DNA from: Octopus vulgaris
Lineage: Eukaryota
NCBI GenBank assembly: GCA_951406725.2
Contig: OX597821.1
Coordinates: 33,728,001 to 33,792,000, forward strand
Direction of reading: 5' to 3'
Length of the DNA stretch: 64,000 nucleotides
The translations under genes and the position numbers were made by a program. Of this stretch, positions 391 to 63,085 are shown piece after piece. The notes beneath the pieces are model-generated. The model did no database searches and was not told where the DNA came from. It saw nothing but the letters and a program-made list of their open reading frames with translations. Position 1 is the first letter of the stretch. Every line of letters begins with the position of its first letter.

Positions 391-2707
391 CTACAGCATA
401 CATCATCATCATCATCATCATCATTGTTTAACATCCGCTTTCCATGCTAGCATGGGTTGGACGGTTTGACTGAGGACTGGCTGCACCAGGCTCTAATCTT
501 GATCTGGCAGAGTTTCTACAGCTGATTGCCCTTCCTAACGCCAACCACTCCGAGAGTGTAGTGGGTGCTTTTACTAGCCACCTGCACGGGGGCCTGTCAG
601 GGGTTACTGGCAACGGCCACGCTCAAATGGTGTTTTTTTACGTGCCAGCTGCACAAGAGCCAGTCCAGCAGCACTGGCAACGACCACGCTCGAATGTTTT
701 TTTACGTGCCTCCGGCACAAGTGCCAGTAAAGCGATGCTGGTAATGATCACGCTTGAATGGTACTGTTTACATGCCACCGGCCCATGTGATCGCAAAAAC
801 ACAAATTTCACAACTTGCGAAGTAAACACAGCGATGTCACTCAGTACATTGCCTCATGAAGGTCAATTCTCCCATTGCGCATGCAACTATAGAACTAGTC
901 CAGGAACTTTTCCATTCCGCCTTGTGCAAGTAACTGGAATCTTCCCAGTTTCTGAGTATAGTTGTTGGATGGATACAAAAACGTGACCAATGGTAGCCCA
1001 TAATCCTGTGAATCCTGTTACTGAAGGAATTTAGCCTAGGGAGGGGAGCCTAATAAATTTTTGATTAGAGAGGGTAAAAAGCCCTTCTCCATTTTACATT
1101 TCCAGTTTACATCACCATATGTTCAGAATGGTAGTAAACAAAGATAATAACACTAGGGAACACATATTTTAGTGAATGGTATCTGACACTTGATTCTAAG
1201 TAATTTGGGTGCACTGAATACGAATTTCAACTCGGCTTGGCTCTATCAGGTCCTGATTCTTGTCAACTTATGTGCCATTTTCTAGATTTTTCAAATTAGG
1301 ACTAAAAAATTAAGTCATGTGTTCAAATTTATTTTCAAGTTTCATAAATACAAGCTGTTCAAACTACTGTAAAATTGCTTTATAACAATAGAAATGACTT
1401 GAAATAAAATAAAAAAAAATAAAGAGATATGAAACGTTCACTCTGACAAAAATTTTCTTTTATAACACTTTCTAGTGTATTTGCTTGTTGTCTCTTTTCA
1501 AGCACCAACAATTATAATTATTGCATTATGTCCTTCAGTAAGATGTAGAACTTGTGATTGCTCTAGTTGGCAAACTGGGATAAGTCTTCATGACATGAGG
1601 AAAGAGAAAACATCCTGAAGTTACCAACGTCACTAGCAAAGCTGTTCGTTGGCTATACGACACTTTTTTAATGTTTATCATTGCACTGTCCTAAACATGA
1701 AAAAAAAAAAAAGAGTTCTTTGTCTGATGAAAAACTTTGCTTTTAACATCAAGATCCTTGTCTTCCTACAGCATTTATTCAAATTTGAGAACTTACCAAA
1801 TTACTTTCTACATTCAGTACATACTGTAAAGTGGTTGGCATTAGAAAGGGCATCCAGATGTAGAAAGCACACCAGACCTGATCCTGGAATATGATGCAGT
1901 ACTTGGACCCATCAGATCTAGTTAAGCCATTCAGCGATGTCAGCATAGAACATTGATGTTAAACAATGATGATAAATTATTTTTAGCCTTCTTGGATCCT
2001 GGTTTTTATTTGACTGTTTGACAAAATTTAGTTTTCATTTTTTAATTTACAGCTGAATATCAGATCAATTTGAGTTTTATAATGGAAATGGTGCAGATGA
2101 TAAGAAACTGTTTGGGAAATGGACTTCATTCATAATTCAAAGAGCCAACATTAAGGGCACAAGTGTTTATATGGAATACTCAGTTACTTCAGTGAGTTGG
2201 CAGTTCAGTTGATCAAACTATTGGAATGGGTGTTTAGCCCACATTATTCCATAAGGAGCATCGGGTTGGTTTCCTTGGTTTCCATGGAGTATATACTCCT
2301 CCCTGGACAGGATGCCAGTCCATCGTAGGATCACTCATTTTTACCAGCTGGGTGGACAGGAGCAATGTGAAATGAAGTGTTTTGTTCAAGAACACAGTGC
2401 ATTGCCTGATCCAGGAATCAAAAACCGCAATCCTACGATCATGAGTTGAACACCTTAACCACTAAACCACGCACCTCCACAGACAACTGGAATACTTACT
2501 ATTAAAACAGATGGAAATCCTCTTACTTAGATGATGAGGACAACAATGATGTTGATTTCTATTAATTTGAAGCTGAGGGCTTCAAATTCTGTGGGTGGAG
2601 TTATAGTTGGTTTTGTTGACTCTGCAAAGATGGGTTTAGAACTGAACATAAAAAGCCATGGCTAAATAATGCTCTCCTGATTCTGCTCCTCTAGTGGATG
2701 TAATAAT

Positions 2708-2907
2708 ATTGGTTCCAAATTCTGGTACAAGGCCAGCAATTCCAGGGGAAGGGATAAGTTGATTACATTGACCCTACTTATTTTATCGACCTCGAGAGAA
2801 TGAAAGGCAAAGTCAACCCTGGCAGAATTTGAACACAATTGCAGAGACGGATGAAATGCTGCTTAGTATTTTGCCTGGTATGCTAACAATTCTGGGAGCA
2901 TGCTGCC

Positions 2908-2951
<44 letters not shown>

Positions 2952-3700
2952 CCTTTTTATTATAGGCACAAGGCCTGAAATTTTGATGGCAGGGCCAGTC
3001 AATTAGATCAACCCCTGTACGCAACTGGTAACTTAATTTACTGACCCTGAAAAGATGAAAGGCAAAGTCAACCTTGGCGGAATTTGAACTCTGAATGTAC
3101 AGATGAACTAAATGTCGCTAAGCATTTTGCCCGCCATGCTAACGGTTCTGCCAGCTTGCTACCTTAGATAATAATAACAATAATCCTTTTTACTATAGGT
3201 ACAAGGCCTGAAATTTGGAGAAAGGGGATAGTCGATGACATTAACCCCAGCACTTAACTGTTACTTATTTTATCAACCTGAAAGGATGAAAGGCAAAGTC
3301 AACCTTGGCAGAGAGAAAGACAAAATGCCGCTTAGCATTTTGCCCACTGAGGTAATGATTCTGCCAGCTCACTGCCTTAATAATAATAATAATAGTAATA
3401 ATAATCCTTTCTACTATAGGCAAAAGACTTGAAATTTGGGGGAGGGGGATTAGTCAATTACATCGATCTCAGTACATAACTGGTACTTAACTTCATTGAC
3501 CCCAAAAGGATGGAAGGCAAAGTTGACCTTGGTGGAATTTGAACTCGGAATGTAGTGTCAGATGAAATAGTACTAAGCATTTTGCCTGATGCGCTAATGA
3601 TTTTGCCAGCTTCCTGCTTAATAATAATAAAAATGATAATAATAATAATGATAATACTAATCTTTTCTACTACAGGCACAAGGCCTGAAATTTGGAGTTG
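2708..3700 (-). mobile_element. Head-to-tail array of 4-5 family B SINEs separated by (AAT)n
   Basis: Repeated unit 'aataat-ccttt.tactataggcacaaggcctgaaattt...gatgaaaggcaaagtcaacc...ctgccagct', all in the same orientation. Confidence 0.85.
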
Positions 3701-5743: not shown

Positions 5744-5990
5744 CAAATTTTTCGAAAATTTTCACCGGAAATTTTACCCAAAAATTTTTGGAAAATTTTT
5801 GCAGAAAATTTTACCCAAAAATTTTCCGAAAATTTTCACCGAAAATCTTCCCCAAAAATTTTTCGAAAATTTTCCCCAAAATTTTTTCGAAAATCTTCCT
5901 CAAAAATTTTTTGAAAATTTTCACCAAAATTTTTTCGAAAATCTTCCTCAAAAATTTTTGAAAAATTTTCAGCAAAGATTTTCCCCCAAT
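5744..5990. repeat. A-tract/T-tract minisatellite (~12-bp subunits, e.g. aaaattttttcg aaaatcttcctc)
   Basis: About 20 imperfect copies of aaaa(t)4-6-NN; explains the FFENLPQK-repeat ORFs. Confidence 0.85.
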
Positions 5991-15010: not shown

Positions 15011-16882
15011 ATAACGCGCTACACACCTTCCTTCCAAGCACTGCTGTAAACAGCAGAAGTGAGCTAGAACGTTAAAACGTAGTGTGCATTCACAGCAGAG
15101 TTCAAAGTCAATCTGTGTCAAGTGGCTTCATTCTGCATGCATTAGCTTCGTTACTATGGCAACAGTCATCAGACCTTGTGTGTGTATAAAGCAGCAAGCT
15201 GGCAGAAACGTTAGCACACAGGGCGAAATGCTTAGCAGTATTCGTCTGCTGTTATGTTCTGAGTTCAAATTCCGCCGCGGTCGACTTTGCCTTTCATCCT
15301 TTCGGGGTCGATAAATTAAGTACCAGTTATGCACTGGGGTTGATGTAATCGATTTAATCCCTTTGTCTGTCCTTGTTTGTCCCCTCTATGTTTAGCCCCT
15401 TGTGAGCAATAAAGAAATAAGACCTTGTGTGTGTATGTATATATGTGTGTGCATGTATATATGTCTGTGTGTATATATGTATGTGTGTGTATAAAAAATG
15501 TGTGTACAAATAGATGTACAACTGCAATGGTCAAGTTTAGCACTCCATGTAGAGTGTCATAGTCCAGTCTGCTTCCAGTATAGTGGTTAAGCAACTGCTG
15601 TACTTAGTTGTATTACTTGTAATAGTATACAGAACAATCATATGAGAAATTATGATAAACACAAGTTTATATTAATTGTTCCCTACATGTGTTTAATAAT
15701 TTTGGTTGTTTGGAACTCTGCATTGGATTTGTGGAGGCACATGGCCTAGTGGTTAGAGCAGCAGACTCACGGTCGAGGGATCGCGGGTTCGAATCTCAGA
15801 CCAGGCAATGTGCGTGTTTATGAGCGAAACACCTAAGCTCCATGCACCCCCGGCAGAAGGTAATGTGAAACTTCTGCTGATTCTTTCGCTACAACTTTCT
15901 TTCACTCTTTCCTCCTGCATCTTGCAGCTCACCTGCGACGGACCAGCGTCCTGTCCGGGTGGGGAAACCTATACGCCAAGAAACCGAGAAACCGGCCCTT
16001 ATGAGCCGGGAATGGCTCGAGAAGGAACAAACAACAATTGGATGTGCCAAGTGCTGTTTGATGCTTAACAACAACAACGGATCATCAAAGAACACTAAGT
16101 TTTCAGTAACATAATTGAATAAAATGTTCCCTTGATGATCTGCAGCTGATAAAACTTCCAATTACACTCGGAAACATCCAGGGCAGTGTTCCAAACAAAT
16201 ACAATAGTGAAATGTGTGTCAGAACAAATATTATAAGCCTGTACTAGTAATTTCTTTTCTTTGTGTGTATGTGTGTATGTGTTTTGCTGGTGCCTATCAG
16301 TGAAAAGACTAAAATAAACTTATATATTTGAACATAAATACCTTGTGGTATTTATTGTGCCGGAGCTGTCCAGATAGTAATCCCTTGTAACACTTAACAT
16401 CAGAAATGCAGTCAACCAGTGATTGATCGATCCCATTGGGACCTGTAACTATTTACATTATTCACAAAATACAAGACACGGCAAATAACTGCCAAGAAAT
16501 ATTATCACTGTTGTTTGGCACTTGGCAATTTCAGATCAAATTAGCACAGTTTTGAGACAAGTGAATCAATCAGCTTCGTGGTGGTGGTAATGCTATGCAT
16601 GTGTCTCTTCTTTTTTAGTGTATACCGTATATACTTCCTTACTTTCTTCATTTTATTTTATGTTTTAATCATTTCATTAAATATAAACACCCATACTTTA
16701 TGTCTGTCTTTGTATTATCCCCTTCAACCTTTGCCCTTGTGGCAAATAAATGAAATCATCATTGTTATTAGTAGTAGTAATTTATTATTATTAGTAGTAG
16801 TTATAATTTAACCTTTAGCATTTAAACTGACCATATCAGAGCCCAATATCCTACCCGTTTTTATGTTCAAATTAGTCTCAAG

Positions 16883-18307: not shown

Positions 18308-20571
18308 ATGCGACACACATTTTGCACATTTTGTACGTATTATGTTTCTGTGTAATCTTTTTGTTTTAGTTATTGAGCTGTGGCCATGCATACATACATA
18401 TATATATTATGGGCTTCTTCTGGTTTCCTTCTACCAAATCCACTCATAAGGCTTTGGTCGGCGCGAGGCTACAGTAAAAGACACTTGCTCAAGGTGTCAC
18501 GCAGTGGACTGAACCCACAACTATGTGTTTTGGAAGTAAGATTCTTACCACACAGCCATGTCTGCGTCTTTTTTATGGTTTTTCTTTTTTACTTTTATTA
18601 TTATTTTTTAAAGTCTGGTACTTATTCTATTGGGCTTTTTTGCTGAACCACTAAGTTACAAACCAGTACCAGTTGTCAAGTGTTGGAGAAATGAGTGACA
18701 GACACATACACATAAACACACACACATACACATGTATATTTCGGTCTTCTACACAGTTCCATCTACCAAATTTAATCACAAGGCATTGGTTGACCTTGGG
18801 CTATAGTAGAAGACACTTGCCCAAGGTGTTGTGCAATGGGATTGAACCCAAAACTGTGGTTGCAAAACAAGCATTTTTTGTTGTTTTTTACTTAAAAGAT
18901 ACTCTTATATTGGTTTCAGCCTTTGACTGTGGCCATGCTGGAGCTCTGATATTAAGTGTTTAGTTATATCAGCACTAGGGTAAAGATTAACGACCTCTTT
19001 TACCATGACCGTGGGATTGCACCTAGAAAGTTCCCCTCCTAAGCACAAGTTCAGACAAGATTGCATATGGAAGACCAGTTGTCGCCCATGCATACCAGCC
19101 TCCTCTCACCATATTATCCAAGGGAAAGGCAAAGGGGCCGATACAGCTTGGCACCAGTGACCTCACAACTCATTTCTTCAGCTGAGTGAACTGGGGCTAC
19201 GTGAAATAAAGTGCTTTGCTCAAGAACACAACACACAGCCCAGTACAGGCATTGAACTCACTACCTTATGATGGTGAGCCTGATGCTCTTTAACAATTGA
19301 TCAATGCACCTTCACACACACACACAAAGAGTAAAGAACCCCTTTGGTCATGAATGACCATGGGATTGCACCTAGAAAGTTACCCCCTGAGGCACAAGTC
19401 TGGGCAAGGTTGTATATGGAAGACCAGCAGCTGCCCATGCATACCTATTTCTTTATTACCCACAAGGGGCTAAACATAGAGGAGACAAACAAGGCCAGTA
19501 ATAGGTATTAGGTCGATTACATTGACCCCAGTGCGTAACTGGTACTCATTTAATCGACCCCGAAAAGATGAAAGCAAAGTCGACCTCGGCGGAATTTGAA
19601 CTCAACGTAACGGCAGACGAAGTACCGCTAAGCATTTCGCCCGGCGTGCTAACGATTCTGCCAGCTCACTGCCCATGCATACCACCCTTCCCTCATCATC
19701 CCACCGATGTTATCCAAGAGTAAGGCAAAGGGACCGATACAGCTTGGTACCAGTGATGTTGCAACTCATTTCTACAGCTGAGTTTACTGGAGTAGCATGA
19801 AATAAAGTGTCTTGCTCAAGAAAACACATAGCCAAGTCCTGCAATTGAACTCACTACTTCATGATGGTGAGCTTGATGCTCTAACCACTGAGTCATGCAC
19901 TCAGGTATATCAACACTAGCATTCAGTCTGGTTTTATTTTACCAATTTCTATTTATCAAGTCATTAAGAACTATATAACAGACACTAATTTGGAGGAAAA
20001 TTAGATGCGAGAAATTTTCAGTTGATTAAATTCTTCAATTTAGTTTTGATTAATGAATTGCTTGTTCCTGTAATAACTGTTTAGAATGTTGTAGCAGTAC
20101 CGAATGATGCGGAGTGGTCAGGGTACTATCTATTGTGCATTAGTACTGTTGCTGCTGCTGCCAGTACTGCTACTGCTATTAGTGGTGGTGGTGGTGGTGG
20201 TGGTGGTGGTGGCAGTATTGGCCAAGGTTGCTGTATTTGGAGCATCATTGCTGCAGTGGAGTCACATGGCTTAGTGGTTAGTGTCGGACTCATGATTGTA
20301 AAATTGTGGTTTCGATTCCTGGACTGGGTGACACATTGTGTTGTTGACGAAAGCATTTCATTTCATGTTGCTCCAGTCCACTCAGCTGGCAAAAAAGAAA
20401 ATCAGTAACCCTGTGATGGACCGGCATCCCATCTGGAATCTAAATTTCATGGAAACCAGGAAACTGACCCCTTATGAGTCAGCGTGACTTGAGAACGTAA
20501 CTTGACTACTTGCTTTACATCATTGCTACTGCTACTACTACTACAACTATTACTACCAGTATTAGCTAGGG

Positions 20572-20866: not shown

Positions 20867-20914
<48 letters not shown>

Positions 20915-21139
20915 AGGCAGCAAGCTGATAGAATTGTTATTGTGCCAAGCAAAATACTGAGGGGCATTTCATCTGTCTTGATGTTCTGAGGTCAAATTCT
21001 GCTAAGGTTGACATAGCTTTACATCCTTTACAAAAGGATGTAAATAAGTACCAGTTGAGCACTGAGTCGATGTAGTTTATTCGCCTTTTCCCCACTTTAA
21101 GACCTTATGCTTATGGCAGGAACAACAACAACAACAACA

Positions 21140-21173
<34 letters not shown>

Positions 21174-26770: not shown

Positions 26771-26997
26771 CGGAGCTGGCAGAATCGTTAGCACGCCAGG
26801 CGAAATGCGTAGCCGTATTTCGTCTGTCGTTACGTTGTGAGTTCAAATTCCGCCGAGGTGGACTTTGCCTTTCATCCTTTCGGGGTCGATAAATTAAGTA
26901 CCAGTTACGCACTGGGGTCGATGTAATCGACTTAATACCTATGTCTGTCCTTGTTTGTCCCCTCTGTGTTTAGCCCCTTGTGGGTAATAAAGAAATA
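26771..26997 (+). mobile_element. SINE family B, young subfamily (tRNA-like head, conserved 'gcctttcatcctttcggggtcgataaa' core resembling the Nin/Sauria domain, LINE-like tail)
   Basis: B-box-like gagttcaaattcc; 12-bp TSD ggtactgggggt. Near-identical copies at 15188-15419, 19446-19668, 43718-43977, 47347-47550, 53514-53733 and 54390-54615. Confidence 0.85.
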
Positions 26998-43372: not shown

Positions 43373-44158
43373 GTCGTCACAATTGCCATCATAATACTAA
43401 TAATAATGATGATAATAATAATAATAATAATAATAATAATATAAGGCAGCAAGTTGGCAGAATTATTTGCATGCCGGACAAAATGCTTAGTGGTGTTTCA
43501 TCTGTTGCTATGTTTGGAGTTCAAATTCTGCTGAGGTCGACATTGCTTTTTATCCTTTCAGGGTTGATAAAATAAGTACCAGTTAAACACTGGAAGTGAT
43601 GTAATCGACTGATTCCCTCCCCAACATTGCAGTCCTTGAAATTATTATTATTATTATTATGTGAAGGGCTGGTAGAATCATTAGCACACTTGATGAAATG
43701 CTTAGCGGTATTTTGCTAAGATGGCGAGCTATAGGTGCCGAGCTATAGGCGGCGAGCTGGCAGAAACGTTAGCACGCGGGGCGAAATGCTTTGCGGTACT
43801 TCGTCTGCGTTACGTTGTGAGTTTAAATTCCGCCGAGGTCGACTTTGCCTTTCATCCTTTCGGGGTCGATAAATTAAGTACCAGTTACGCACTGGGGTCG
43901 ATGTAATCGACTTAATACCTATGTCTGTCCTTGTTTGTCCCCTCTGTGTTTAGCCCCTTGTGGGTAATAAAGAAATAGGTATTTTGCTTATTGCTATATT
44001 CTGAGTTCAAATTCCACCAAAGTCGACTTTACTTTTCATCCATTTGGGCTCGATAAATTAAGTACCAGTGAAACACTGGGGTTGATGTAATCAACTAGTT
44101 CTCTCCCCCAAAATTTCAGGTGTTGTGCCTTTAGTAGAAAAGATTATTATTATTATTA

Positions 44159-44690: not shown

Positions 44691-47600
44691 TTTTTTTGTA
44701 TATAGTACTCTTAATCTTTTACTTGTTTCAGTCATTTGACTGTGGACATGCTGGAGCACCGCCTTTAGTCGAGCAATTCGACCCCAGGACTTATTCTTTG
44801 TAAGCCTAGGACTTATTCTATCAGTCTCTTAGGTCGAACCGCTAAGTTACGGGGACGTAAACACACCAGCATCGATTGTCAAGCGATGTTGGGAGGACAA
44901 ATACATACACACACATACATTTATATACATGTGTACGATGGGCTTCTTTCAGTTTCCGTCTACCAAATCCACTCACAAGGCTTTGGTCGGCCCGAGGCTA
45001 TAGTAGAAGACACTTGTCCAAGGTGCCACGCAGTGGGACTGAACCCAGAACCATGTGGTTGGTAAGCAAGCTACTTACCACACAACCACTCCTGTGCCTA
45101 TGGTTTGAAGTTCTCAGTATACTTGTCAGAGGGGTTAATGCAATGACAAAGAGAGTAACAGAGAGAGAGATTCTCCCTGGAAAGTGCCCCCGTATATCTT
45201 TACGTTTCCTAGTGATTCATTTGCCCATGTCAGTTCTACTTCTCACACTCTCATTGCTTTTTCCAAAAAGTTGTTTATCTCCTCATCAAATCCAAGCACC
45301 CTCAGACACTCCAAGAGCCACCTGTGTGGTACATTGTTATAAGCCTTCCTGTAATCTATCCATCCAATGGCTAAGGTTGTTGGGTACATTACACAAAGGA
45401 AGATAGGATGGAAATCACTGCTATAGAACTGTGTTATCCAATGTGTCCTTCCTCTTTTTAAGAACTATGTGACACGAGAAGATTTAGTTGCTATTTTTAG
45501 CAAGTCTAATGACCTCAAACGACCTCCCTATAGAATCTTGGATTGAAGTGTGAAGTGGGGTGGCTATTGTTGCTGTAAGTCAGTTCATCTTAAAGTAGAC
45601 CAATGATATACCTTTAAAATATATGACAGAGAGAAATCTAGTACAGGAGATTTGGCTGCCATGTTTAGCATGTTGTTGCTTATCCCTGGGTCAACACTGA
45701 TTGAGAAGACCTACTATCAAAACCATTCCAGCCATGACCATCCTGTCTTTTTTTTGTTTGAGAAATTCTTACTTAATGAGCCATTCTTTTCTTTTAAGAT
45801 GGTACAATGTGCTTTGAAGGAGATTCAGATGTTCATCATCATCATCATCGTCGTTTAACATCCACTTTCCATGCTAGCATGGTTGGACGGTTTGACTGTG
45901 GGCTGGCAAACCAGATGGCTGCACCAAGATCCAGTCTTGATCTGGCAGAGTTTCTACAGCTGGATGCCCTTCCTAATGCCAACCACTCCAAGAGTGTAGT
46001 GGGTGCTTTTACGTGCCACCAGCACAGGGGCCAGTCAGGTGGTACTGGCAACGACTTCGCTTGAATTTTTACACATGGGCCAGTCATGCGGTACTGGCAA
46101 CGACCTCGCTCGAATTTTTTTAGAAAATCAAATGTCCACATATAGACTCTTCCAATGATTTATATCAAATGACTATATAGAGGCTTCTTTGGTGAAATAG
46201 ACACCGAGTTCAATGCTAACCTGAGAATGTGTGTGTGTGTATGTGTGCATGAATATAGCACTTAAAGATGACTGGAAAAGTTACTAAGTGAAAATTACTA
46301 AAGATGCTGGCATACAGTATGAGATTTCCAATCCTGAAAAGGTCACATACACAGTATATTATTGATTGTTTTCTTCCTGAAATTATTGTCTAAGTTAATT
46401 ATCGGTGCTGCTACAGTAAAGGATTTTTTTAAAAACCAGATTAGAGAGGAAAAAGAAAAATGAGCAATGTTCTTCTTTATTAGCCACAAGGACAAGACAG
46501 ACAGTTATTAAAGACTGATAGTAATTAAATATATATATGTGTACACACATACACACGCACACACACACACGCACAAACACATGCACTCACACACATATAT
46601 GTATGTATATATTTAAAAGGATTATGACACAAAAAGAAGAAAAAGGAAATAAAAAGAATAAAGAAGAACAACAAAATCTTTGTGACACAACTTTAATTAA
46701 AGACCAGAAGTAAATTAAATTGATAATTAGAAAACAGGAAAAAATGTCATTCTCCTCCTCATATTCAATACTGCCACCCACACCACCACTGCCGTCACCA
46801 CCACCACCACCACCACTAGCTGCAGCAGTATGACTATTATTATCCTATCATCATAACTACAGCGAGTGTTACCACCATTATTAACTCCCGCTTAACAACT
46901 GTTTTCCATGTTGCTAAGTGTTATTTTTTTGAAATTTATTTTATACATCTAATTTTTGTACACAACAGCATCTCTGGTTACAGGTTTCCAATACAGCAAT
47001 CATTGGTTTGCAGCAACGACAATGGTAAGAGCGACATGGGAGTGTCCATGTAATTCAGGCTGAACAAATACCACAAGAGGTATTTTTGTTTTGAAAGCAC
47101 CAGCTTATTGGATTTCTCACAAATCGTTATATCTTTCCATGAAAGATATAACTATCAACTCACTGTTTAAATATTAATGAAGCTATAAATAACCCTTTCT
47201 ATTATATGCATGGGCCCTGAAATTTGTGGGGGGGGAGCTGGTCAATTACAATGGTACTTATTTCATTGATCCCAAAAGGATGAAAGGTAAAGCTGACCTT
47301 GATAGAATTTGAACTCACCGTGTAAACAGCCAAAAGAAATACTGTTTAAGGCAGCAAGCTGGCAGAAACATTAGCACGCCGGGTGAAATGCGTAGCCGTA
47401 TTTCGTCTGCCGTTACGTTCTGAGTTCAAATTCCGTCACGGTCGACTTTGCCTTTCATCCTTTCAGGGTCGATAAATTAAGTACCAGTTACGCACTGGGG
47501 GCGATGTAATCAACTTAATACCTATGTCTGCCCTTGTTTGTCCCTTCTATGCATACCATTCTCCTCTCTCCATGCTCACCGATGATATCCAAGAGAAAGG

Positions 47601-53325: not shown

Positions 53326-54351
53326 ATAATAATAATAATAATAATAATCCTTTCTACTATAGGCACAAGAACTGAAATTTTGGGGAGGGGACTAGTCGGT
53401 TATATTGACCCCAGTGTTTCACTGGTACCTAATTTATCAACCCCCGAAAGGATGAAAGGCAAAATTAACTTCAGCAGAATTTGAACTCAGAATGCAGCAA
53501 CAGGTGGAATACCTATTTCTTTACTGCCCACAAGGGGCTAAACACAGAGAGGACAAAAAAGGGCAGACAAACGGATTAAGTCGATTACATCGAGCCCAGA
53601 GCGTAACTGGTACTTAATTTATCGACCCCGAAAGGATGAAAGGCAAAGTCGGCCTCGGCGGAATTTGAACTCAGAAGTAATGGCAGACGAAATACGGCTA
53701 CATATTTCGCCCAGCGTGCTAACGTTTCTGCCACCACTAAGCATTTCATCCAGTGTGCTAACAGTTCTGCCAGCTTGCCGCCTTCATAACAACAACAACA
53801 ATAATAATAATAATCCTTTCTACCATAGGTACAAGGCCTGAAACTTTGGGGGAGGGGGCTAGTTGATTACTTCGATCCAGGGGATGAACTGGTACTTATT
53901 TTATCAGCCCCTAAAGGATGAACGGCAAAGTCAATTTCAGCAGAATTTGAACTTTGGGGGAAAAAAGACAGACAAAATGCTTAGCAGACAAAGTGCTGCT
54001 AAGCATTTTGTCTGGCATGCTAATGATTCTGCCAGCTGACTGCCTTATTAATAATAATAATCCTTTCTACTGGAGGCACAAGGCCCTAAATTTGGGAGGT
54101 GGGAAGGGGACTAGTTGATTACATTGCCCCCCAGTGTTTCACTGGTACTTAATTTATCGATCCCAAAAGGATGAAAGGTAAAGTTGACCTCGGTGGAATT
54201 TGAACTCAGAACATAGCAGCAGATGAAATACCATTGCACCCAGTGTGCTAACGATTCTGCCAGCTTGCTGCCTTCTTGATAATGATGATAATAATAATAA
54301 TAATAATAATGCATTGATGGCATGCACTGCTCTCACTCAATAATGATGATG

Positions 54352-54393
<42 letters not shown>

Positions 54394-54782
54394 TTTTTTT
54401 ATTTCTTTATTACCCACAGGGGACTAAACATAGAGAGGACAAACAAGGGGATTAAGTCGATTATATCGACCCCTGTGCGTAACTGGTACTTATTTAATTA
54501 ACCCTGAAAGGATGAAAGGCAAAGTCGACCTCGGCGGAATTTGAACTCAGAATGTAACGGCAGATGAAATACAGCTAGGCATTTCGTCTGGCGTGCTAAC
54601 GATTCTGCCAGCTCAATAATAATAATAATAATAATGGTTTCAAATTTTTGCACATGGTCAGCAAGTTTAGTGAAATTTGTAAGTTGATTACATCGATCCC
54701 ACTGCTCCGTTGATACTTATTTTTTGACCCTGAAAGGATGAAAGGCAAAGTTGACCTCAGTGCAATTTGAACTCGGAACATA
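53326..54782 (-). mobile_element. Head-to-tail array of ~6 family B SINEs separated by (AAT)n
   Basis: Same unit and polarity as 2708-3700; includes a nested young copy at 53514-53733. Confidence 0.85.
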
Positions 54783-54796
54783 AAGTGATACTAATA

Positions 54797-54833
<37 letters not shown>

Positions 54834-54858
54834 TGATGATGATGATGATGATAATATT

Positions 54859-55682
54859 AGTCAAGATGAAGAGCACGATTCGATTGTATGATATTTTATT
54901 AATTGAAAAATATTTCAACAGTACGTCTGTCTTTGTCAAGTTCGAAATGAACAAGAGAGGTAAGCCCTGTTCATTGTGCAACAACATGAGTGAAGTGAAT
55001 TATATCAGAAATCATAACAGAAATGTTATGATTTATATAGAAGGTGGAACATTTAAAGATTCCCATGTACGCTGCAGAATGCACGAAACACAACTTAATT
55101 TATGTTGGTTGTACAACAGAACAATTAAACAAAAGGTTTAATGGGCACAGATTCAACGTCAGGCACAATAACAGTAGTTCGACAGAACTTGCTGAACATT
55201 TCGTTTCAAGCAGCTGCAATTTTGAAGAAGACTTGAAAGTACATATTCTCAGAAAATATTCTGAATCTGCTTCACTTTCACTTCTCAGAATGTATGAGGA
55301 GAAATATGTTTGCTGGTTATTAACATCATGCCCTGGAGGAATGAATAAGATGGCAGGAGAATATCATCAAATTTATACAAAACTGTTTGATTAAATATCC
55401 TTTTTTCTATCTTTTACTTTCCTTTTTTTTCTGTCGTCTTCTTTTTACTGTTTTTTTGTCTTTTTCTTTTTGTCTGTTATAAAATTGTAACTTAAAAACT
55501 GATGATGTCATTCCGTCAACATGTGGACGCTGGTTGCTCTCGTTCATACTTTACGTTTAAATTTCTGTAATTTTGAATTTTTACCACTTCTTATTTTGAA
55601 CTTGAGAAAGACAGACGTACTAATGAAATATTGTTCAGCTAATAAAATATCTTATAATCAAATCGTGCTCTTCGTCTTGACT
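54859..55682 (+). mobile_element. Penelope-like element fragment: frameshifted GIY-YIG endonuclease flanked by ~95-bp inverted repeats
   Basis: Joining two frames gives 'KPCSLC...GGTFKDSHV / YAAECTKHNLIYVGCTTEQLNKRFNGHR...ELAEHF...YEEKY...PGGMN'. Arms 54859-54955 and ~55587-55682 are diverged reverse complements. CTGATGA at 55499-55505 in the 3' region. Confidence 0.8.
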
Positions 55683-56020
55683 GTTTACCTTTGTGAAGAG
55701 TTATGTCAATCCTTTTAAAATAACAATAATAATAATAATAATAATCAATTCTTTTTTATTGGCCACAAGGGCTGACACGCATGATTACATAAAGGGACAA
55801 GACAGGACGAAAGGTTACAAAGGGTTTTGCCGTTTTTAAAAACATCGAGTAAAAATCTTTATAACAACTTATAAAATTCAACAATGAAAAACTCCCAAAA
55901 GGGGGAGACGTCTCGAAAGGTTCCTGGTGGAAAAAACCCTACAAAAGCCAACGGGAGCCTGGTCTAAAAAGGGGGTGTAGAGAGTCCCCTTTCTTCTCCT
56001 TTTGTATTACCTTTTTGAAA

Positions 56021-58357
56021 TCACAGGCGAAACCTGAGAACTGGTCCATTTATACAGGCCAGTCTCGCACAATTCACCCACCTGTCATAAAACTTGCTAT
56101 CGGACAGCACTTTCCTCTCTAACCTCATCTTCCTTTTCAAGTGAAACTTGAAAAAGTTGATGAGGCCTTGACCAAAGAGGAAAGTGTCTGTCTTTAGCCC
56201 TTTCAAACGAGTCCACCACACCACCTCTTTCGCCACAGCCACTAGGCACAAGAAAACGGCCTCGCCCTCCTTGTTAAAGGAGGTCGGCGGGGCAATCTTC
56301 ACTATGGATTCGGCCGATAGTCGGATCCGTCCTACACGTGACAGTAGCTGTTCGACATAAACCCATATTTCAGCAATACTCGGGCACTGGACGAGTGCAT
56401 GCAGAACGGTTTCGTCGTCCTGGCAACACCTCGGGCAGGCCCGGCTGACGGCACTTCCGTGCCGGTAGAGTTTATCCCGAACAGGCAGAGCCCCTCGGTA
56501 GCACTGCCAAGCGAGAGACCTCTGGAAATTATCCATCGGCCCCGGCCCGAAAGTCCTCCCGAACAGACCGCTCAGTTCGTCGTCTTCAACGCCTAGAGTT
56601 TCCCCGAGAACGTCGTCGCATTTTTCCTCCACTAACCCTCTATAGAACGCTAGAGTGGAGCTGTAACCGATCGCATTGCCCGCCTGGCGGAGGGCGGAGA
56701 GAGCTTGACGGCACTCGAGGTGCCAAGCGCCCTTTCTCGGTCTACGTTTGATCCAGGTCTGCAGCTCCGTCAAAGAGACGAGCTGCGGAAAATCGCGTCT
56801 GACAAAAGACGACCACACCTGTTCACCGTCTAGGAAGCGCTTGAGATGCCGCAGCCTGAGCGCATGTCTGCGCAACAGCAACCACGGCATTCCAAGGCCT
56901 CCGTTCAGCGGTCGTTGACAGCAGATGGATTGCCTGACCAGTGGCACCTGACCCTTCCACAAAAAGTCGAAGAGCAGACGTACCAGCTTGGCCAACCAGC
57001 GGTCGGGACAAGGGACAACGGTCAAGCGGTAATAGATGACGGATGCGATGTACGCATTCGCCACCTCCGCTCGACCTTTCAGGGACAGCTTCCTCTCGGC
57101 CCATTTCTGGGTGAGACGTGCCACCCTGCTCGTCACCTCTTCCCAGTTCTTATCCACCTGGAGGTCCGGACCGAACCAGACCCCGAGCAGTTTAACGGGT
57201 CCGTCTGTCCAGCGCCCTACGACGCTGTTGGACGGCATGGGCTTGCCTCTCCAGGTGCCCAGTTGCAAGCCCACAGACTTTTCCGCGTTAATCTTTGCTC
57301 CTGTCACCGCTTCGTACTGGTTTAGCGTCTCGCCAATCAGGCCAATGTGCCTGTGGCTCGACACCACCACGGTGACGTCGTCGGCATAGGCAGACACGCT
57401 GTTTCCGCCTCCTAGATCGCGCGGGATACCCCTCAAAGCCTCCAACTTGCGCAGTAATGGCTCGAGAGTCAAAATGTACAAGAGGGAGGAGAGAGGGCAT
57501 CCTTGGCGGACCGAACGCGAGATGTCGAACGGTTCCGAAAGGTGACCGTTCACCCGTATCACCGAGCAGATGTTGCTGTATAAAGCAGCGATCCACCCGC
57601 GGAAGACTGGACCGAAGCCGGCTGCCCTGAGGACAGCTGCCAGGTACCGATGGTCGACTCTATCGAAGGCTTTACTCTGATCCAAGTTGATCAAAACCCC
57701 ACCCGCGCCAGCGTCGTTACCCACCCTCTCTATGATGTAGCGCATGAGATGGAGGTTGTCGTGTATCGACCTGGTCGGCACGGCGCATGTCTGCGTCTTG
57801 CCGACCAGCTTGTCCACGACAAGCGCCAATCTCTTGGCTAGCACCTTGGCCAAAATCTTCAACTCTGCATTGAGCAGAGTGATGGGCCGGAAATTCCCTA
57901 TAACGTCCCCCTTGTTTGGGTCCTTCTTTAGCAAAGCCACCACCCCTCGACAGACAAAAGCAGGAATTCTCCCGTTTTGCTGCCAGTTGCAGTAGACGTT
58001 TGCCAACAGGTCCGCAAACAAGTCTGGCATTGAAAAGTAAAGCTCGTAGGGCAGACCATCCAAACCCGGCGATCTACCTCTCGTGCAACTCTTCATCGCT
58101 TCCTGTACTTCCCAGGCAGATATCGGTCCTTCGCAGCACTCTGCCTCGCTGTCCGAGAGTTGCGGCAGTCCGTCCAGGTACACACCGAAGTCTGTACCGT
58201 TGGTGTCCGTTCCACCGCTCGTCCCAAACAGTTGAGCAAAGTGCCGCTGAAGCACCGTACACATCTGCTTCGGTTGGGTAACCCGCGCCCGTTCTGGTCC
58301 ACCAAAGACCGAATGGTTGCTCTGTTGCCTCGCTTCGCCTCCGCCACGCGGGCCCAT
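56021..58357 (-). CDS. LINE ORF2 C-terminal half: reverse transcriptase and C-terminal zinc finger (homology begins ~58285)
   Basis: Motifs RSPGLDGLPYE, FRPITLLNAELKILAK, LINLDQSKAFDRVDH, VRQGCPLS, AYADD, KLLGV, GGLG, and CPRC..DETVLHALVQC. Confidence 0.95.
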   Translation of the reverse strand: MGPRGGGEARQQSNHSVFGGPERARVTQPKQMCTVLQRHFAQLFGTSGGTDTNGTDFGVYLDGLPQLSDSEAECCEGPISAWEVQEAMKSCTRGRSPGLDGLPYELYFSMPDLFADLLANVYCNWQQNGRIPAFVCRGVVALLKKDPNKGDVIGNFRPITLLNAELKILAKVLAKRLALVVDKLVGKTQTCAVPTRSIHDNLHLMRYIIERVGNDAGAGGVLINLDQSKAFDRVDHRYLAAVLRAAGFGPVFRGWIAALYSNICSVIRVNGHLSEPFDISRSVRQGCPLSSLLYILTLEPLLRKLEALRGIPRDLGGGNSVSAYADDVTVVVSSHRHIGLIGETLNQYEAVTGAKINAEKSVGLQLGTWRGKPMPSNSVVGRWTDGPVKLLGVWFGPDLQVDKNWEEVTSRVARLTQKWAERKLSLKGRAEVANAYIASVIYYRLTVVPCPDRWLAKLVRLLFDFLWKGQVPLVRQSICCQRPLNGGLGMPWLLLRRHALRLRHLKRFLDGEQVWSSFVRRDFPQLVSLTELQTWIKRRPRKGAWHLECRQALSALRQAGNAIGYSSTLAFYRGLVEEKCDDVLGETLGVEDDELSGLFGRTFGPGPMDNFQRSLAWQCYRGALPVRDKLYRHGSAVSRACPRCCQDDETVLHALVQCPSIAEIWVYVEQLLSRVGRIRLSAESIVKIAPPTSFNKEGEAVFLCLVAVAKEVVWWTRLKGLKTDTFLFGQGLINFFKFHLKRKMRLERKVLSDSKFYDRWVNCARLACINGPVLRFRL

Positions 58358-59454
58358 CGAGCGGCTCTAGTCCCCTCCCCGCTTAGCGAGCGTGCCTTAG
58401 CTCTGACAACGCAGCCCTCGTGTTTGGCGTCGAAGTGTTGGTCGAGGGCCAACCTTGCCGCCAACACGTCGGTCGCGATGCCAGTGTCAAGAGCCTCGTC
58501 TAGTTTCTTAACTAAATCCCGCTCTCTCTTCCTACGTTCAATAGCTAGAGTCTTACTATACCTAATCGACTCTACTCTAATTGCTCTCTTGAGGGCAAAC
58601 CACCAGTTGTTGTTGATGATTGCCCCCGTGAGCGCCCGCTTAACTAGTAAACTAATCCGGTCTCTGTAAGCTTTGCACGCCGTTAACGACGCGTTCAGCT
58701 TCCAGTAGCCGGGTCCCTGTCTATGTAGCCTATCTAAGTCGACCGTACAGATCACTAATTTGTGGTCCGTATATTCGACTAGGTGGAATTGTGGACACCC
58801 TACGCTGTCCTTATCCGCTGGCCTACAAAACACTCTATCTAAGTACGATCTAGACGACCCGATGCGGTTTGTCCAAGTCCACATTGGCACATTCGGGTTG
58901 TCTAGTCGAAACCTGTCGGACAGCTGAAAGCGGCCGAGTAGGTTGGCGAGGCTCTTGCACCCTCCCCCTCTCCTATCAGACGCTCCCCTGCCCACCCGAT
59001 CGAAACGTTCGTCTAAGACAGCGTTCCAATCCCCAACTAGCACTAGAGTGCGTGACGTTCCCAGGAAAACTTCCAGACGTTTGAAATAATCCGACTGCCC
59101 TGCTCCTGTCGGAGCGTAGGCAGCCAGCAGTCTGAAAGCACCGCCGTCACTACCGTCGACGTCGAGGACCACCAACTTACCTTCCGGATCCAAGAAGACT
59201 GTCCTTATTTTCAGGTCCAGGCCCTTCCGAAACAACACCGCAGTACCACCACCGCCCGCTCCCGGCCGACACGGAGATAGAAATATCTCGTATCCGCCGA
59301 AAAGGGCTGCGAGTTCCTGCGGGTCGGAGAGCCTGGTTTCACTGATGGCTGCTACATCCACATCATGAAACCTCAGGTCGTTTAACAGGTGACCCTGTTT
59401 CCAAGGTGACCCGAGGCCTCTCACATTCAAGCAACCGATTCTAAGATTTGCCAT
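58093..59454 (-). CDS. LINE ORF2 N-terminal half: apurinic-like (APE) endonuclease plus linker; homology ends at ~58285 (frameshift)
   Basis: Motifs LNVRGL, ISETR, YAPT, LVGDWNAV, SYLDRVF, TDHKLV, and GPGYWKLNASL (typical of L1/Tx1). Confidence 0.92.
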   Translation of the reverse strand: MANLRIGCLNVRGLGSPWKQGHLLNDLRFHDVDVAAISETRLSDPQELAALFGGYEIFLSPCRPGAGGGGTAVLFRKGLDLKIRTVFLDPEGKLVVLDVDGSDGGAFRLLAAYAPTGAGQSDYFKRLEVFLGTSRTLVLVGDWNAVLDERFDRVGRGASDRRGGGCKSLANLLGRFQLSDRFRLDNPNVPMWTWTNRIGSSRSYLDRVFCRPADKDSVGCPQFHLVEYTDHKLVICTVDLDRLHRQGPGYWKLNASLTACKAYRDRISLLVKRALTGAIINNNWWFALKRAIRVESIRYSKTLAIERRKRERDLVKKLDEALDTGIATDVLAARLALDQHFDAKHEGCVVRAKARSLSGEGTRAARWARVAEAKRGNRATIRSLVDQNGRGLPNRSRCVRCFSGTLLNCLGRAVERTPTVQTSVCTWTDCRNSRTARQSAAKDRYLPGKYRKR

Positions 59455-59494
59455 GTTTCAAAAGTTAGGGGAAAAAAAAAGGAGAAAAAAGGCT

Positions 59495-61000
59495 CTACTT
59501 ACTGTTGTTGGTGGTGGGGGTGGCTCCCTTGTGCTTTTGCACGGGTGCTTCCACAATGTTTTTGTAAAGTTTCTTCGAGAAACTTTTCCCTAGCGATCCC
59601 ACATCGTTAGGGAATATTTGTTTGATTTCATCATATGTTTTTGCATTTATTTTTATTGTGAGAATGTGTGCTGGTGGTGTGTTTTGTGTTGGTATGATGA
59701 AATCGGTTATATTTGTACTAGTTTTGTTTTTTAAGTACTCCACTAGTTTTTGGTTCTTTGTGTTTATTGATGTAATTGTGTCTGTGTGTGTTTGTGTGTG
59801 TGGCAGTGGCAGTAGTGGTGTCGAAAGTGTTGTTGTTGTTTGTTGTTGTGAGTGTGTGTTGTTGTTGTTGTTGTTGTTGATGTTGGGAAGCACTATTTGT
59901 TCGTGCTTCCCCTGTAAATCTTTTTGTTTCTTCCTCCTTTTCTTCTTTGGAGGCACTATACTCCATTCTCCTTTGTTGGAATCAGAGCTCGCACAATCCG
60001 ACTCTTCATCCGGCAAAGGAATGGTTGAGGGGTCTGCTTCAGTAGCAGGACGAAAAGTTTCTGGTTCCACCGGTATCGGTGGTGCCGCTGCTCCTGTTAC
60101 TGTTGATGTCGCTGCTGTCGACCTTCGAGGTACTGGTGTCGGTGTTGGTTTGGTGGTGGTTGTCGGTGTTGGTTTGGTGGTGGTTGTTGTTGTTGGAGGT
60201 GGTGTTGTTCGTCTTGGTGCTGGTGTTGGTGATGGTGTTGGTGGTGTGGCAGCCTTTGGTTTTTCTTGCTGTTTTTGTTGTTTCTGTTGTTGTTGCTTGT
60301 GTTGTTGTTGTTGTTGTTGTTGTTGTTGCTGCTGCCTCTTGCTATACTCCTCCATTCTCTTTTTTTGAATGGGGCAGTCCCTTTTTAGGTGGCTTTCGCT
60401 ACTGCAGAGGAAACATTTTGGCTTTCGCCCCTCTACAATAACATTTAGCCTGGTCCCATCCAGCAAGATGACAAAGTCAGGTATGGCATTGATGTTTTCC
60501 TGCTGGATCTGTACCAGCAGTTGAATACCCATGCCTGACCAGTTCTTTTCTCGTACCCTCCGAACATTCAGAATAGTGGCAGTGTCCTCTATGCCATAGA
60601 GGACAGCCGCCACTAGCCATGAGATTTTCTGTTCGGGGGGTATTGTGCTTATAGTTATTTTTTGTACCTTACGCCCGAGGTACGTCGGGACGAAGAACAA
60701 ATGTTCATTTTGCAAGGGCGAAATGGCGTTCGCCCTTGCAAGCTCCTCTGTTGGGAAGCGAACCTCCACGGTTCCAAATCGCTTCCCTCTTGTCACATAG
60801 CTCTTCTGGCCCCAAATGGGCTTCAGAGCCATCTCCAACTGTTGTGGTGTGGCGTTAAACAATCTTTTAGTTTTCTTTTCGAAGACTTTATAAAAGATTG
60901 TTCTTTTGCTTGTCTCTTGTGTGAGTTGTTGAGGTGTGTTGAGGAAAACACTGTTCCCCTCCTTTCTCAACAAATCTTGTGCCATTTTTATGTCCTCCAT
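59495..61000 (-). CDS. LINE ORF1p (RNA-binding/chaperone) with CX2CX4HX4C zinc knuckle; true start may be upstream at 61360
   Basis: CFLCSSESHLKRDC knuckle, RRM-like 'RFGTVEVRF', NLS-like PPKKKRRKK, polyQ, Pro/Thr-rich and polyN low-complexity tail; directly upstream of the APE ORF. Confidence 0.85.
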   Translation of the reverse strand: MEDIKMAQDLLRKEGNSVFLNTPQQLTQETSKRTIFYKVFEKKTKRLFNATPQQLEMALKPIWGQKSYVTRGKRFGTVEVRFPTEELARANAISPLQNEHLFFVPTYLGRKVQKITISTIPPEQKISWLVAAVLYGIEDTATILNVRRVREKNWSGMGIQLLVQIQQENINAIPDFVILLDGTRLNVIVEGRKPKCFLCSSESHLKRDCPIQKKRMEEYSKRQQQQQQQQQQQHKQQQQKQQKQQEKPKAATPPTPSPTPAPRRTTPPPTTTTTTKPTPTTTTKPTPTPVPRRSTAATSTVTGAAAPPIPVEPETFRPATEADPSTIPLPDEESDCASSDSNKGEWSIVPPKKKRRKKQKDLQGKHEQIVLPNINNNNNNNTHSQQQTTTTLSTPLLPLPHTQTHTDTITSINTKNQKLVEYLKNKTSTNITDFIIPTQNTPPAHILTIKINAKTYDEIKQIFPNDVGSLGKSFSKKLYKNIVEAPVQKHKGATPTTNNSK

Positions 61001-61612
61001 TGTAATTTCTACATCTTCCGAAATTTGCTTCGCAGCAGAAGCAAAATCGTTAGAAGCTTTTACAGTTTTTTGTTGGTTCTTGTCTGTGTTTGTGTCTGTT
61101 ATAATTTTCTTTACCTCCCCCTTCGGTACAGCATCACTTGTTGAAGGCAGAGGGGGAAATCAAGAGTGACGTCGAACGCGACGTCCTGGCATGCATTCTC
61201 CTTTTGAACCGAGCGCGTGCTCTCCGGTTCGGAAGGAGGAGCTTTGTTGCCTTTTACGGCCTGAAATGGGTTGTACGTAACCCGTGACGTTATTTTTTTT
61301 TGTTCTTGTAGGGGGTGTTGCAAGAAGGAGGGAAGAGCCAGCAGCTCGTTTCAGTGCCATTTTGTAATGTGTGTGTGCAAAAAATGTCAATTTCAAAAGG
61401 ATAGACAGTAATTTCACCCCGAATGGGGCAAAATTTCGCCCAACCGACGAGCTCCGCAAGAAGCCGGTCGGTTTGGCTACAAAAATATTTAAAAATATTC
61501 AAACTTATCAAATGAATTCCAATGAAATTGGTGTCAAATTCACGGAGCTGATTCACGTACGTCCATCGGCGTCGGAAAGAATAATAATAATAATAATAAT
61601 AATAATTACAAT

Positions 61613-62313
61613 AATCTTTTCTAATCTAGGCACAAGGCCCAAAATTTTTTTGGGAGGAATTAAGTTGACTAGATCAACCCCAGTGCGCAACTAGTACTTA
61701 ATTTATTTATCCCAAAAGGATGAAAGGTAAAGTCGACCTCGGCAGAATTTGAATAATTATAATAATCCTTCCTACTATAGGCACAAGGCCTTGAATTTGG
61801 AGGGAGAGGTCAGTCAATTATATCGACCCCTGTATGCAACTGGTACTTAATTTATTGACCCTGAAAGGATGAAAGGCAAAGTTGACCTCAGCAGAATTTG
61901 AATAATAATAATAATCCTTCCTACTATAGGCACAAGGCCTTGAATTTGGGGGAAGAGGCCAGTCAATTAGATCGACCCCTATATGCAACTGGTACTTAAT
62001 TTATTGACCCCGAAAGGATGAAAGGTAAAGTTGACCTCAGATTAATTTGAACTTGGAACATAAAGACAGATGAAATGCTGCAAATACTGATAATAATAAC
62101 GAAGATGATGATAATGTTGATAATAATTATAATAATAATCCTTTGTACTATTGGGACAAGGCCTGAAATTTGCGAGGGTGGGGTAAGTCGATCACATTGA
62201 TTTCAGTGCTCATCTGGGACTTATTGACCCTGAAAGAATGAAAGGCAAAGCTGACCTCAGTGTAATTTGAACCCAGAACGTAAAGACAGATGGAATGCCG
62301 CTAAGTACTTCGC
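61613..62313 (-). mobile_element. Head-to-tail array of 4 family B SINEs adjoining the LINE 5' end
   Basis: Same unit and polarity as the other arrays; (AAT)n spacers. Confidence 0.85.
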
Positions 62314-62314
62314 T

Positions 62315-63085
62315 CAGCAGATGAGGAATGGAGTCAGTGTGTTCCATTGGATGTGCAACATCAGTGCATCAGTGTGCATGTACAACAAAGCACAAATGTA
62401 TTCTAAGAAAAGTTGGACATAAGAAGAAACGAATGCAGCATGCAAGAGAGAAGACTATGTTGGTTTAGACATATGATCATCATCATCGTTTAACGTCCGC
62501 TTTCCATGCTAGCATGGGTTGGACGATTTTGACTGAAGGCTGGCAAACCAGATGGCTGCACCAGGCTCCAGTCCTGATCTGGCAGAGTTTCTACAGCTGG
62601 ATGCCCTTCCTAACGCCAACCACTCCGAGAGTGTAGTGGGTGTTTTTTACGTGCCACCGGCACGGGGGCCAGTCAGGCGGCACTGGCAACGACCTCACTC
62701 GAATCTTTTTACACGTGCCACCAGCACAGATGCCAGTGAAGTAACGTTGGTAACGATCACATTCAAATGGAGCCCTTTTACGTGCCACAGGTACGGAAGC
62801 CAGTTGGCTGCTCTGGCAACGATCACGCTCGGATGGTGCTCTTGGCACCCTACTAGCACAGGCATAAGTGCCAGTAAGGCAATGATGATTCATGATACAT
62901 ATGAATAAAAAACAGCTGTATAAAGAAGTGTTAGTCACTGAAAGTGGATGGTACCTGTGGAAGAGGGAGACCCAGGAAGACATGGAATGAAGTGGTGAGA
63001 ACCGATGTAGGGATGCTGGGGCTTATAAAGGAAATGACAATGAACCAAGGTGTCTGGTGATAGGTTCTAGAAGCACTGGGTGTTC
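62315..63085 (+). mobile_element. Decayed RTE-type LINE 3' portion interrupted by a family A element
   Basis: WMCNIS..EKLDI..MQERRLCWF.H, then after the 62477-62882 insertion VDGTCGRGRPRKTWNEVV..D. Confidence 0.65.

Follow-up and report, generated by a model that had tools for sequence, protein, structure and literature searches.

A frameshifted Tx1-like retrotransposon between ATT repeats in Octopus vulgaris, and a plausible preference of its family for such sites

The element and its domains

The stretch of Octopus vulgaris DNA analysed here, 64 kb in length and called the window below, contains a single copy of a full-length, 5834-bp Tx1-like non-LTR retrotransposon on the minus strand (55746..61579). 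All of its parts lie on that strand: a CpG-rich 5' UTR that starts immediately after an (ATT)9 repeat (61361..61579), ORF1 (59495..61360, ATG at 61360), ORF2 in two pieces, and a 3' UTR (55746..56020). The first ORF2 piece (58283..59454, ORF2 start at 59454) encodes an APE endonuclease (PF03372) and a linker, and the second, in a different frame (56021..58282), the reverse transcriptase (RT) and a C-terminal CCHC finger (PF00078, PF13966). A Pfam scan of ORF2 returned Exo_endo_phos at 7.8e-18, RVT_1 at 1.2e-30 and zf-RVT at 9e-09, and the best PDB matches of the first piece are L1 endonuclease and APE1 structures. The APE residues N10, E39, Y113, D142, N144, D206 and H231, to which the L1 endonuclease gives catalytic roles, are all found, as are the C-terminal finger and the RT motifs, YADD (57388) among them. 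ORF1 has a Q/T/P-rich C-terminal half and a single CCHC knuckle at 60415, which falls under the Pfam cut-off here (E 0.076) and above it in 3/9 homologues or relatives scanned. An ORF2 that begins with an APE domain, continues with RT and closes with a CCHC finger, next to a separate ORF1 with a nucleic-acid-binding motif, agrees with the L1 group (L1/Tx1).

The 3' UTR terminates in GCC-CTTGT-GGC, predicted to form a GCC-CUUGU-GGC hairpin (55772-55762), then AATAAA (55760-55755) and AAAGAATTG. Only three further A and GAATTG separate AATAAA from the adjoining repeat, in agreement with an earlier, sequence-only reading of this DNA that had reported the absence of poly(A). The same reading took the retained CpGs as a mark of youth. 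CpG observed/expected is indeed high, at 0.97 in ORF2 and 0.89 over the whole element, compared with 0.46 and 0.44 for the flanks, but we do not use it as a clock: CpG content would depend on the methylation state, and identity to family contigs is better evidence (0 substitutions between these contigs and the window over 61022-61433).

A nested array of repeats

The element is part of one nested array (53340-62320) in which SINEs of two types (A and B), a Penelope-like piece and the element all border ATT tracts. On the sense (minus) strand the order is SINE tail, (ATT)9, element, (ATT)7 and degenerate units. In forward coordinates, the tract before the 5' end (61580..61615, minus strand) consists of a perfect (AAT)9 at 61580-61606 and then TAC AAT AAT up to 61615, whereas the tract after the 3' end (55719..55745, minus strand), which may be a target duplication, a tail or both, opens with AAT AAC at 55719 and continues as a perfect (AAT)7 over 55725-55745. 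Both ends thus abut the repeat, as first reported, but the upstream perfect tract ends at 61606 and not at 61602; the proposed polarity, ATT-element-ATT on the sense strand, is confirmed by flanks reading (ATT)9 and (ATT)7. A measurable target-site duplication was dropped from consideration, since the insertion falls inside a repeat.

The initial reading overlooked both the origin of the upstream repeat, which belongs to a SINE as its tail, and the surrounding nest of different element types. The SINE in question (61616-61753) is the last of four type A copies (61616..62313, minus strand), all 5'-truncated and separated by ATT-rich tracts, and its 3' tail supplies the upstream (ATT)9. On the other side lies a remnant on the plus strand (54858..55718), with a GIY-YIG frame at 55041-55394 (PF01541, 5.7e-05), inverted repeats at about 54858-54902 and 55641-55683, and ATT/ATC tracts on both sides; we call it Penelope-like because a GIY-YIG domain is a feature of such retroelements. 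Beyond it, more ATT tracts and SINEs follow out to 53340, among them a SINE B copy (54391..54615, minus strand) that is oriented like the Tx1 element and lies between an upstream (ATT)7 and a downstream (ATT)13.

The window holds 22 runs of at least four AAT/ATT units, many of them adjoining SINEs. Over both strands of the rest of the window, nine ATT units lie directly upstream of 40/115,966 positions (~0.03%) and three units lie on both sides of 106/115,966 (~0.09%), figures that take no account of the locus having been chosen for its striking look. Two isolated 3'-motif matches elsewhere (16733-16750, within a match at 16733-16790 that runs on into degenerate ATT/ATC/AGT repeats, and 46470-46491) were rejected as copies of the element because they have no upstream similarity to it; they are possibly old tails of related families. 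A tandem array at 5745-5982, with a 12-13 bp AAATTTTCCCGA-like unit, differs from the window's other simple repeats. There was no Rfam match in the window.

Frameshifts and copy number

This copy carries three frameshifts, one in ORF2 near 58283 and two in ORF1 near 61310 and 61155, which the description "near-intact" passes over. The ORF2 frameshift places the endonuclease and the RT in separate frames; the claim that all catalytic motifs are present therefore holds for the APE, RT and CCHC finger motifs themselves, which are now divided between two frames. The APE domain, made up of the first 235 residues, is itself intact in this copy. Both ORF2 pieces align to one continuous protein of a relative (P0121). 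Compared with Octopus sinensis XP_036364761.1 (79% identity), ORF1 is shifted twice at its start, with a stop between the shifts. At each of the three sites, contigs of one sequencing run (X5) are of another length than the window (at 58283, five contigs disagree with the window length, depth 6424/8853), in a comparison that left out 16 loose ends and two joints at ATT repeats. On these contig sequences, therefore, the reading frames of the family are likely open at the three sites. Both ORF1 shifts fall within G/C runs and could be assembly errors; the ORF2 shift extends no run.

Among the 24 runs listed, 18 contain at least half of the words that make up the element, and some of its sequence occurs in 20 runs belonging to seven studies; the raw reads recovered for the element numbered 7, 10 and 6 from three runs. 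Four X5 contigs, 145-220 nt long and carrying 0-1 substitutions, reach depths of 1153-3639, and joints found in single contigs lie mostly at depth 35-52. This depth ratio would suggest, very roughly, some tens of close copies; summed contig depth was not taken as copy number. Scans with close relatives yielded no second copy of the family in genome, viral or metagenome contigs, and a broader alignment search of viral contigs gave no match. Exact searches for the 3'-end pattern returned 1 and 4 matches, all judged to be chance, with RT absent nearby.

Kinship with Tx1-like elements

The best protein matches of the element are 67-80% identical to it, one of them named Argonauta hians, and the longer matches include a protein named Transposon TX1. 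In an RT tree (42/42 rows kept), the element falls in a group of 4 (support 100/100) inside a group of 18 (100/100) that contains Argonauta and cuttlefish proteins. It is nested among animal elements, with a Keno-like element inserted at a U2 gene (locus L045) and the protein named TX1 (28 rows at 91/83; 33 rows at 96/91), apart from plant and algal L1. Because vertebrate L1 and Repbase Tx1 references are absent from this tree, Tx1 membership is likely, not proven. The first reading was right on the type of element; its placement among Tx1-like elements is moderately supported by the RT tree, and its sequence likely represents a cephalopod lineage among them, with protein matches that indicate an octopod host.

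Locus L045 (757-4236, 4686-4859, 5078-5241, 6157-6275) is a Keno-like element joined at its 3' end to a U2 snRNA gene, near U1 and 5S genes; its contig is labelled Anaerolineae and represents eukaryotic contamination. Like Keno, the U2 snRNA-specific Tx1 element, it has an RNA gene as target, and it is only ~28-33% identical to the octopus element, with which it shares the 28-row RT group.

The RBD models PF23057 and PF23058 mark the ORF1 of Tx1 elements. They were seen in fish and frog relatives and gave no match in the ORF1 of the element or in nine other ORF1s; they may not reach cephalopods. Octopus annotations take the ORF1 of this lineage for host genes or merge it with gene models (P0286, P0288, P0289, P0341).

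SINE tails and flanks

SINE A and SINE B have a common head and core and different tails. The SINE A tail reads GGC-CTTGT-GCC and then ATT repeats; the SINE B tail reads GCCC-CTTGT-GGG(C/T) and then AATAAAGAAATA. When the element is compared with four copies each of SINE A and SINE B, the loop proves near-constant and the stem pairs of the predicted hairpin change with compensation; with three families involved, this amounts to two or three events and not to nine. In tail comparisons whose windows were centred on the shared motif, a choice that favours a match, SINE A tails matched the 3' UTR of one sister element (L016, see below) over ~30 nt in 8/8 copies (0/500 shuffles each). They matched another sister (L004) less evenly (3/8 copies at <=1/500 shuffles) and the octopus element in 3/8 copies at <=2/500. 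SINE B tails matched the octopus element weakly, in 4/5 copies at <=1/500 shuffles and at 26/2000 in another test. Pattern searches of sequence collections with the SINE tails gave no matches, and SINE B was not detected in the genome that holds the sister elements (G001).

Within 30 nt upstream, 10/20 SINE A copies have at least four ATT units in sense polarity and 1/20 has them in opposite polarity, against a background of 1370/116,146 windows (1.2%); the copy at 61753 was dropped from this count as a tandem duplicate of 61902, and head-only matches went uncounted. Two of the copies counted are 5'-truncated at different points. Because the ATT-flanked copies fall into four clusters, they cannot be counted as ten independent samples. 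Diverged SINE A copies form chains, each copy beginning in its predecessor's ATT tail, at 2730-3700, 43400-44150, 53340-54830 and 61616-62313. One SINE copy (20867-21172) has (CTA)n/(ACT)n on both sides in place of (ATT)n.

SINE B shows another pattern. The same upstream ATT flank is present at 1/7 copies. Six copies retain a tail: one has ATT on both sides, one an unrelated 17-bp duplication, and four (26773-26997, 19446-19673, 43748-43977, 53514-53733) are followed by GGTA(C/T), three of these with clear target duplications of ~11-15 bp. The GGTA(C/T)-flanked copies carry R-G-Y just ahead of the duplicated target, and two of them sit inside another SINE at the same position. These flanks suggest a second sequence-preferring endonuclease. 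Since SINE B tails resemble the 3' end of the octopus element, an R-G-Y/GGTAY site could be that element's main target and the ATT site a minority event. The resemblance is short, however, at 17/20 nt, and relatives exist at 67-80% protein identity, one of which could be the real partner of SINE B; we regard this reading as improbable.

Sister elements in head-to-tail arrays

A broad search found 46 related loci; 40 of these, which overlap, come from host DNA within a single metagenome-assembled genome (MAG), G001. This GTDB genome is labelled uncultured Arenicella, and many of its contigs are animal host DNA (L001-L038, L040, L044), so that it is a contaminated MAG. Its Tx1-like elements, mostly open-frame and of several mixed families, form tandem units of 6.4-6.9 kb, head-to-tail. 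They resemble the octopus element in belonging to the same 100/100 clade, in a homologous ORF1 (E 6e-16) and in their 3' motif, and differ from it in ORF2 (42-44% identity), in the tandem arrangement and in the flanks: an ATT/AAT run of five units occurs at 0/46 related loci. The arrays represent an unexplained Tx1 lineage in tandem, possibly self-targeting.

All 34 distinct 3' contexts printed show a CTYGT-loop motif (CUYGU in RNA) and AATAAA(A)G with at most one extra A, and none shows poly(A) or a repeat tail. We therefore rejected the missing poly(A) as a sign of ATT targeting: the argument drawn from it was weak, the trait being clade-wide and common to sister elements that lie outside ATT. 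The same 3' ends bear on whether the element RNA carries its own (AUU)n tail, which would anneal to AAT ends, so that landing would depend on priming and not on a specific endonuclease. A 3' end reading GAATTG and then ATT repeats, the nearly universal ATT ending of SINE A, and a junction that cannot be placed within the repeat would all agree with such a tail. The sister elements lack any repeat tail, and SINE B copies outside ATT lack an ATT tail, which makes this quite an unlikely account. Judging from the sister sequences, the ATT behind the octopus element is more likely target DNA than tail.

A probable preference for ATT repeats

What sits in the (ATT)n tail of a SINE here is a complete but frameshifted member of a multi-copy Tx1-like family of cephalopods. 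We think it probable, with considerable reserve, that this family prefers (ATT)n landing sites. At its 3' junction the element, like most SINE A copies, shows G followed by ATT, consistent with one register, and the SINE B copy within the array has the same ATT-element-ATT layout. Further points in favour are the rarity of such sites, the 3' ends of the sister elements, the tails and upstream flanks of SINE A, and the Tx1 precedents given below. Against such a preference, only one insertion site of the family has been read, SINE B, whose tail fits the element best, is in ATT in a single copy, the sister arrays are without ATT, and the Penelope-like piece lies in the same tract system. Since the SINE nearest the element mostly avoids ATT and the ATT-favouring SINE is nearer a sister, the SINE data reveal ATT-seeking machinery in this genome but do not link it to this exact family.

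The variety of elements bordering ATT tracts in the array could also mean that these tracts are a general sink, with a loose T-A or AT-rich preference and a tract system that collects any insertion. One SINE A copy in (CTA)n, one in opposite polarity, and a locus picked because it looked unusual fit this view. Yet SINE A polarity is consistent (10 sense versus 1 antisense), and (TA)n/(CA)n runs, though far longer in the window, lie upstream of 0/20 SINE A and 0/7 SINE B copies. We hold a general sink to be unlikely.

Under a preference of the family for (ATT)n, the APE domain would nick the (AAT)n strand at a T-A step, and the freed DNA end would prime reverse transcription of an RNA ending just past the CUUGU-loop hairpin and AAUAAA. 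Insertion would divide the ATT tract and duplicate part of it, so that the element would have ATT at either end. SINEs with Tx1-like 3' ends would likely use the machinery of the same lineage, and this sharing would explain the local chains in which each SINE sits in the previous ATT tail. The family-wide preference, the nick position, the function of the hairpin and the SINE-LINE partnership are what we infer here.

Comparison with known systems and significance

Microsatellite targeting has precedents among Tx1 elements: Kibi in (TC)n, Koshi in (TTC)n, and Tx1 families of crocodilians in (TTCC)n/(TTTC)n (PMC4494074). The teleost elements Kibi and Koshi and the crocodilian Tx1 share with the octopus element a Tx1-type APE and microsatellite flanks (PMC4494074; PMC3812793). 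Compared by description, the octopus element differs from Kibi and Koshi in its cephalopod host and in flanks that are (ATT)n and not the TC-rich (TC)n or (TTC)n. The specificity of Kibi, Koshi and crocodilian Tx1 rests on many copies and that of the octopus element on one; a family has been called target-specific where >20% of copies have a common flank type (PMC4494074). In the text of that source covered here, (ATT)n is not one of the Tx1 targets, and its supplement may list more. In the literature searched, mostly non-subscription, we found no description of an (ATT)n-targeting Tx1 or of a Tx1 partner for octopus SINEs.

The same repeat class is the target of Dong, an R4-clade element that inserts into TAA microsatellites (PMC3812793). 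Dong-R4 elements are abundant and recently active in O. vulgaris (PMC13282606), and could be an alternative driver of SINE placement. R4-clade elements encode a restriction-like endonuclease (PMC4640811). The octopus element, with two ORFs and an N-terminal APE in place of such a nuclease, falls outside Dong/R4. The sense strand of Dong ends in (TAA)n, a polarity opposite to that of the element.

A link between SINEs and Tx1 has been drawn in crocodilians, where Tx1-Mar and SINEU share a target preference and the SINEs are inferred to have been moved by Tx1 (PMC4494074). There, as far as the available text goes, the link consists of common target, age and snRNA-derived heads, whereas in the octopus it consists of a common 3' hairpin and tail, with a microsatellite as target. 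SINEs make up 11.6% of the O. vulgaris genome (PMC13282606), and we found no partner LINE named for them in the literature searched. The L1-Tx1 families listed for this species number 80 (PMC13282606).

Since microsatellite-targeting Tx1 elements are already known, one more target is a modest addition, and we regard the element as one of ordinary type with a plausible new target that is unproven at family level. If true, (ATT)n targeting would give this repeat class an APE solution, where Dong relies on a different nuclease. The SINE link is of wider value, and the resemblance between SINE tails and the 3' ends of Tx1 elements may be the more novel result. As a tentative extension, which we think rather doubtful as a whole, octopus SINEs may be passengers of a cephalopod Tx1 radiation, each taking its CUUGU-loop 3' hairpin and its target from one Tx1 family, with an (ATT)n-specific family, such as that of the present element, giving rise to the chains of SINEs and the AAT microsatellites of which octopus genomes are full. 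Related Tx1 families with differing targets and endonuclease loops would offer a natural series for the study of how APE specificity changes.
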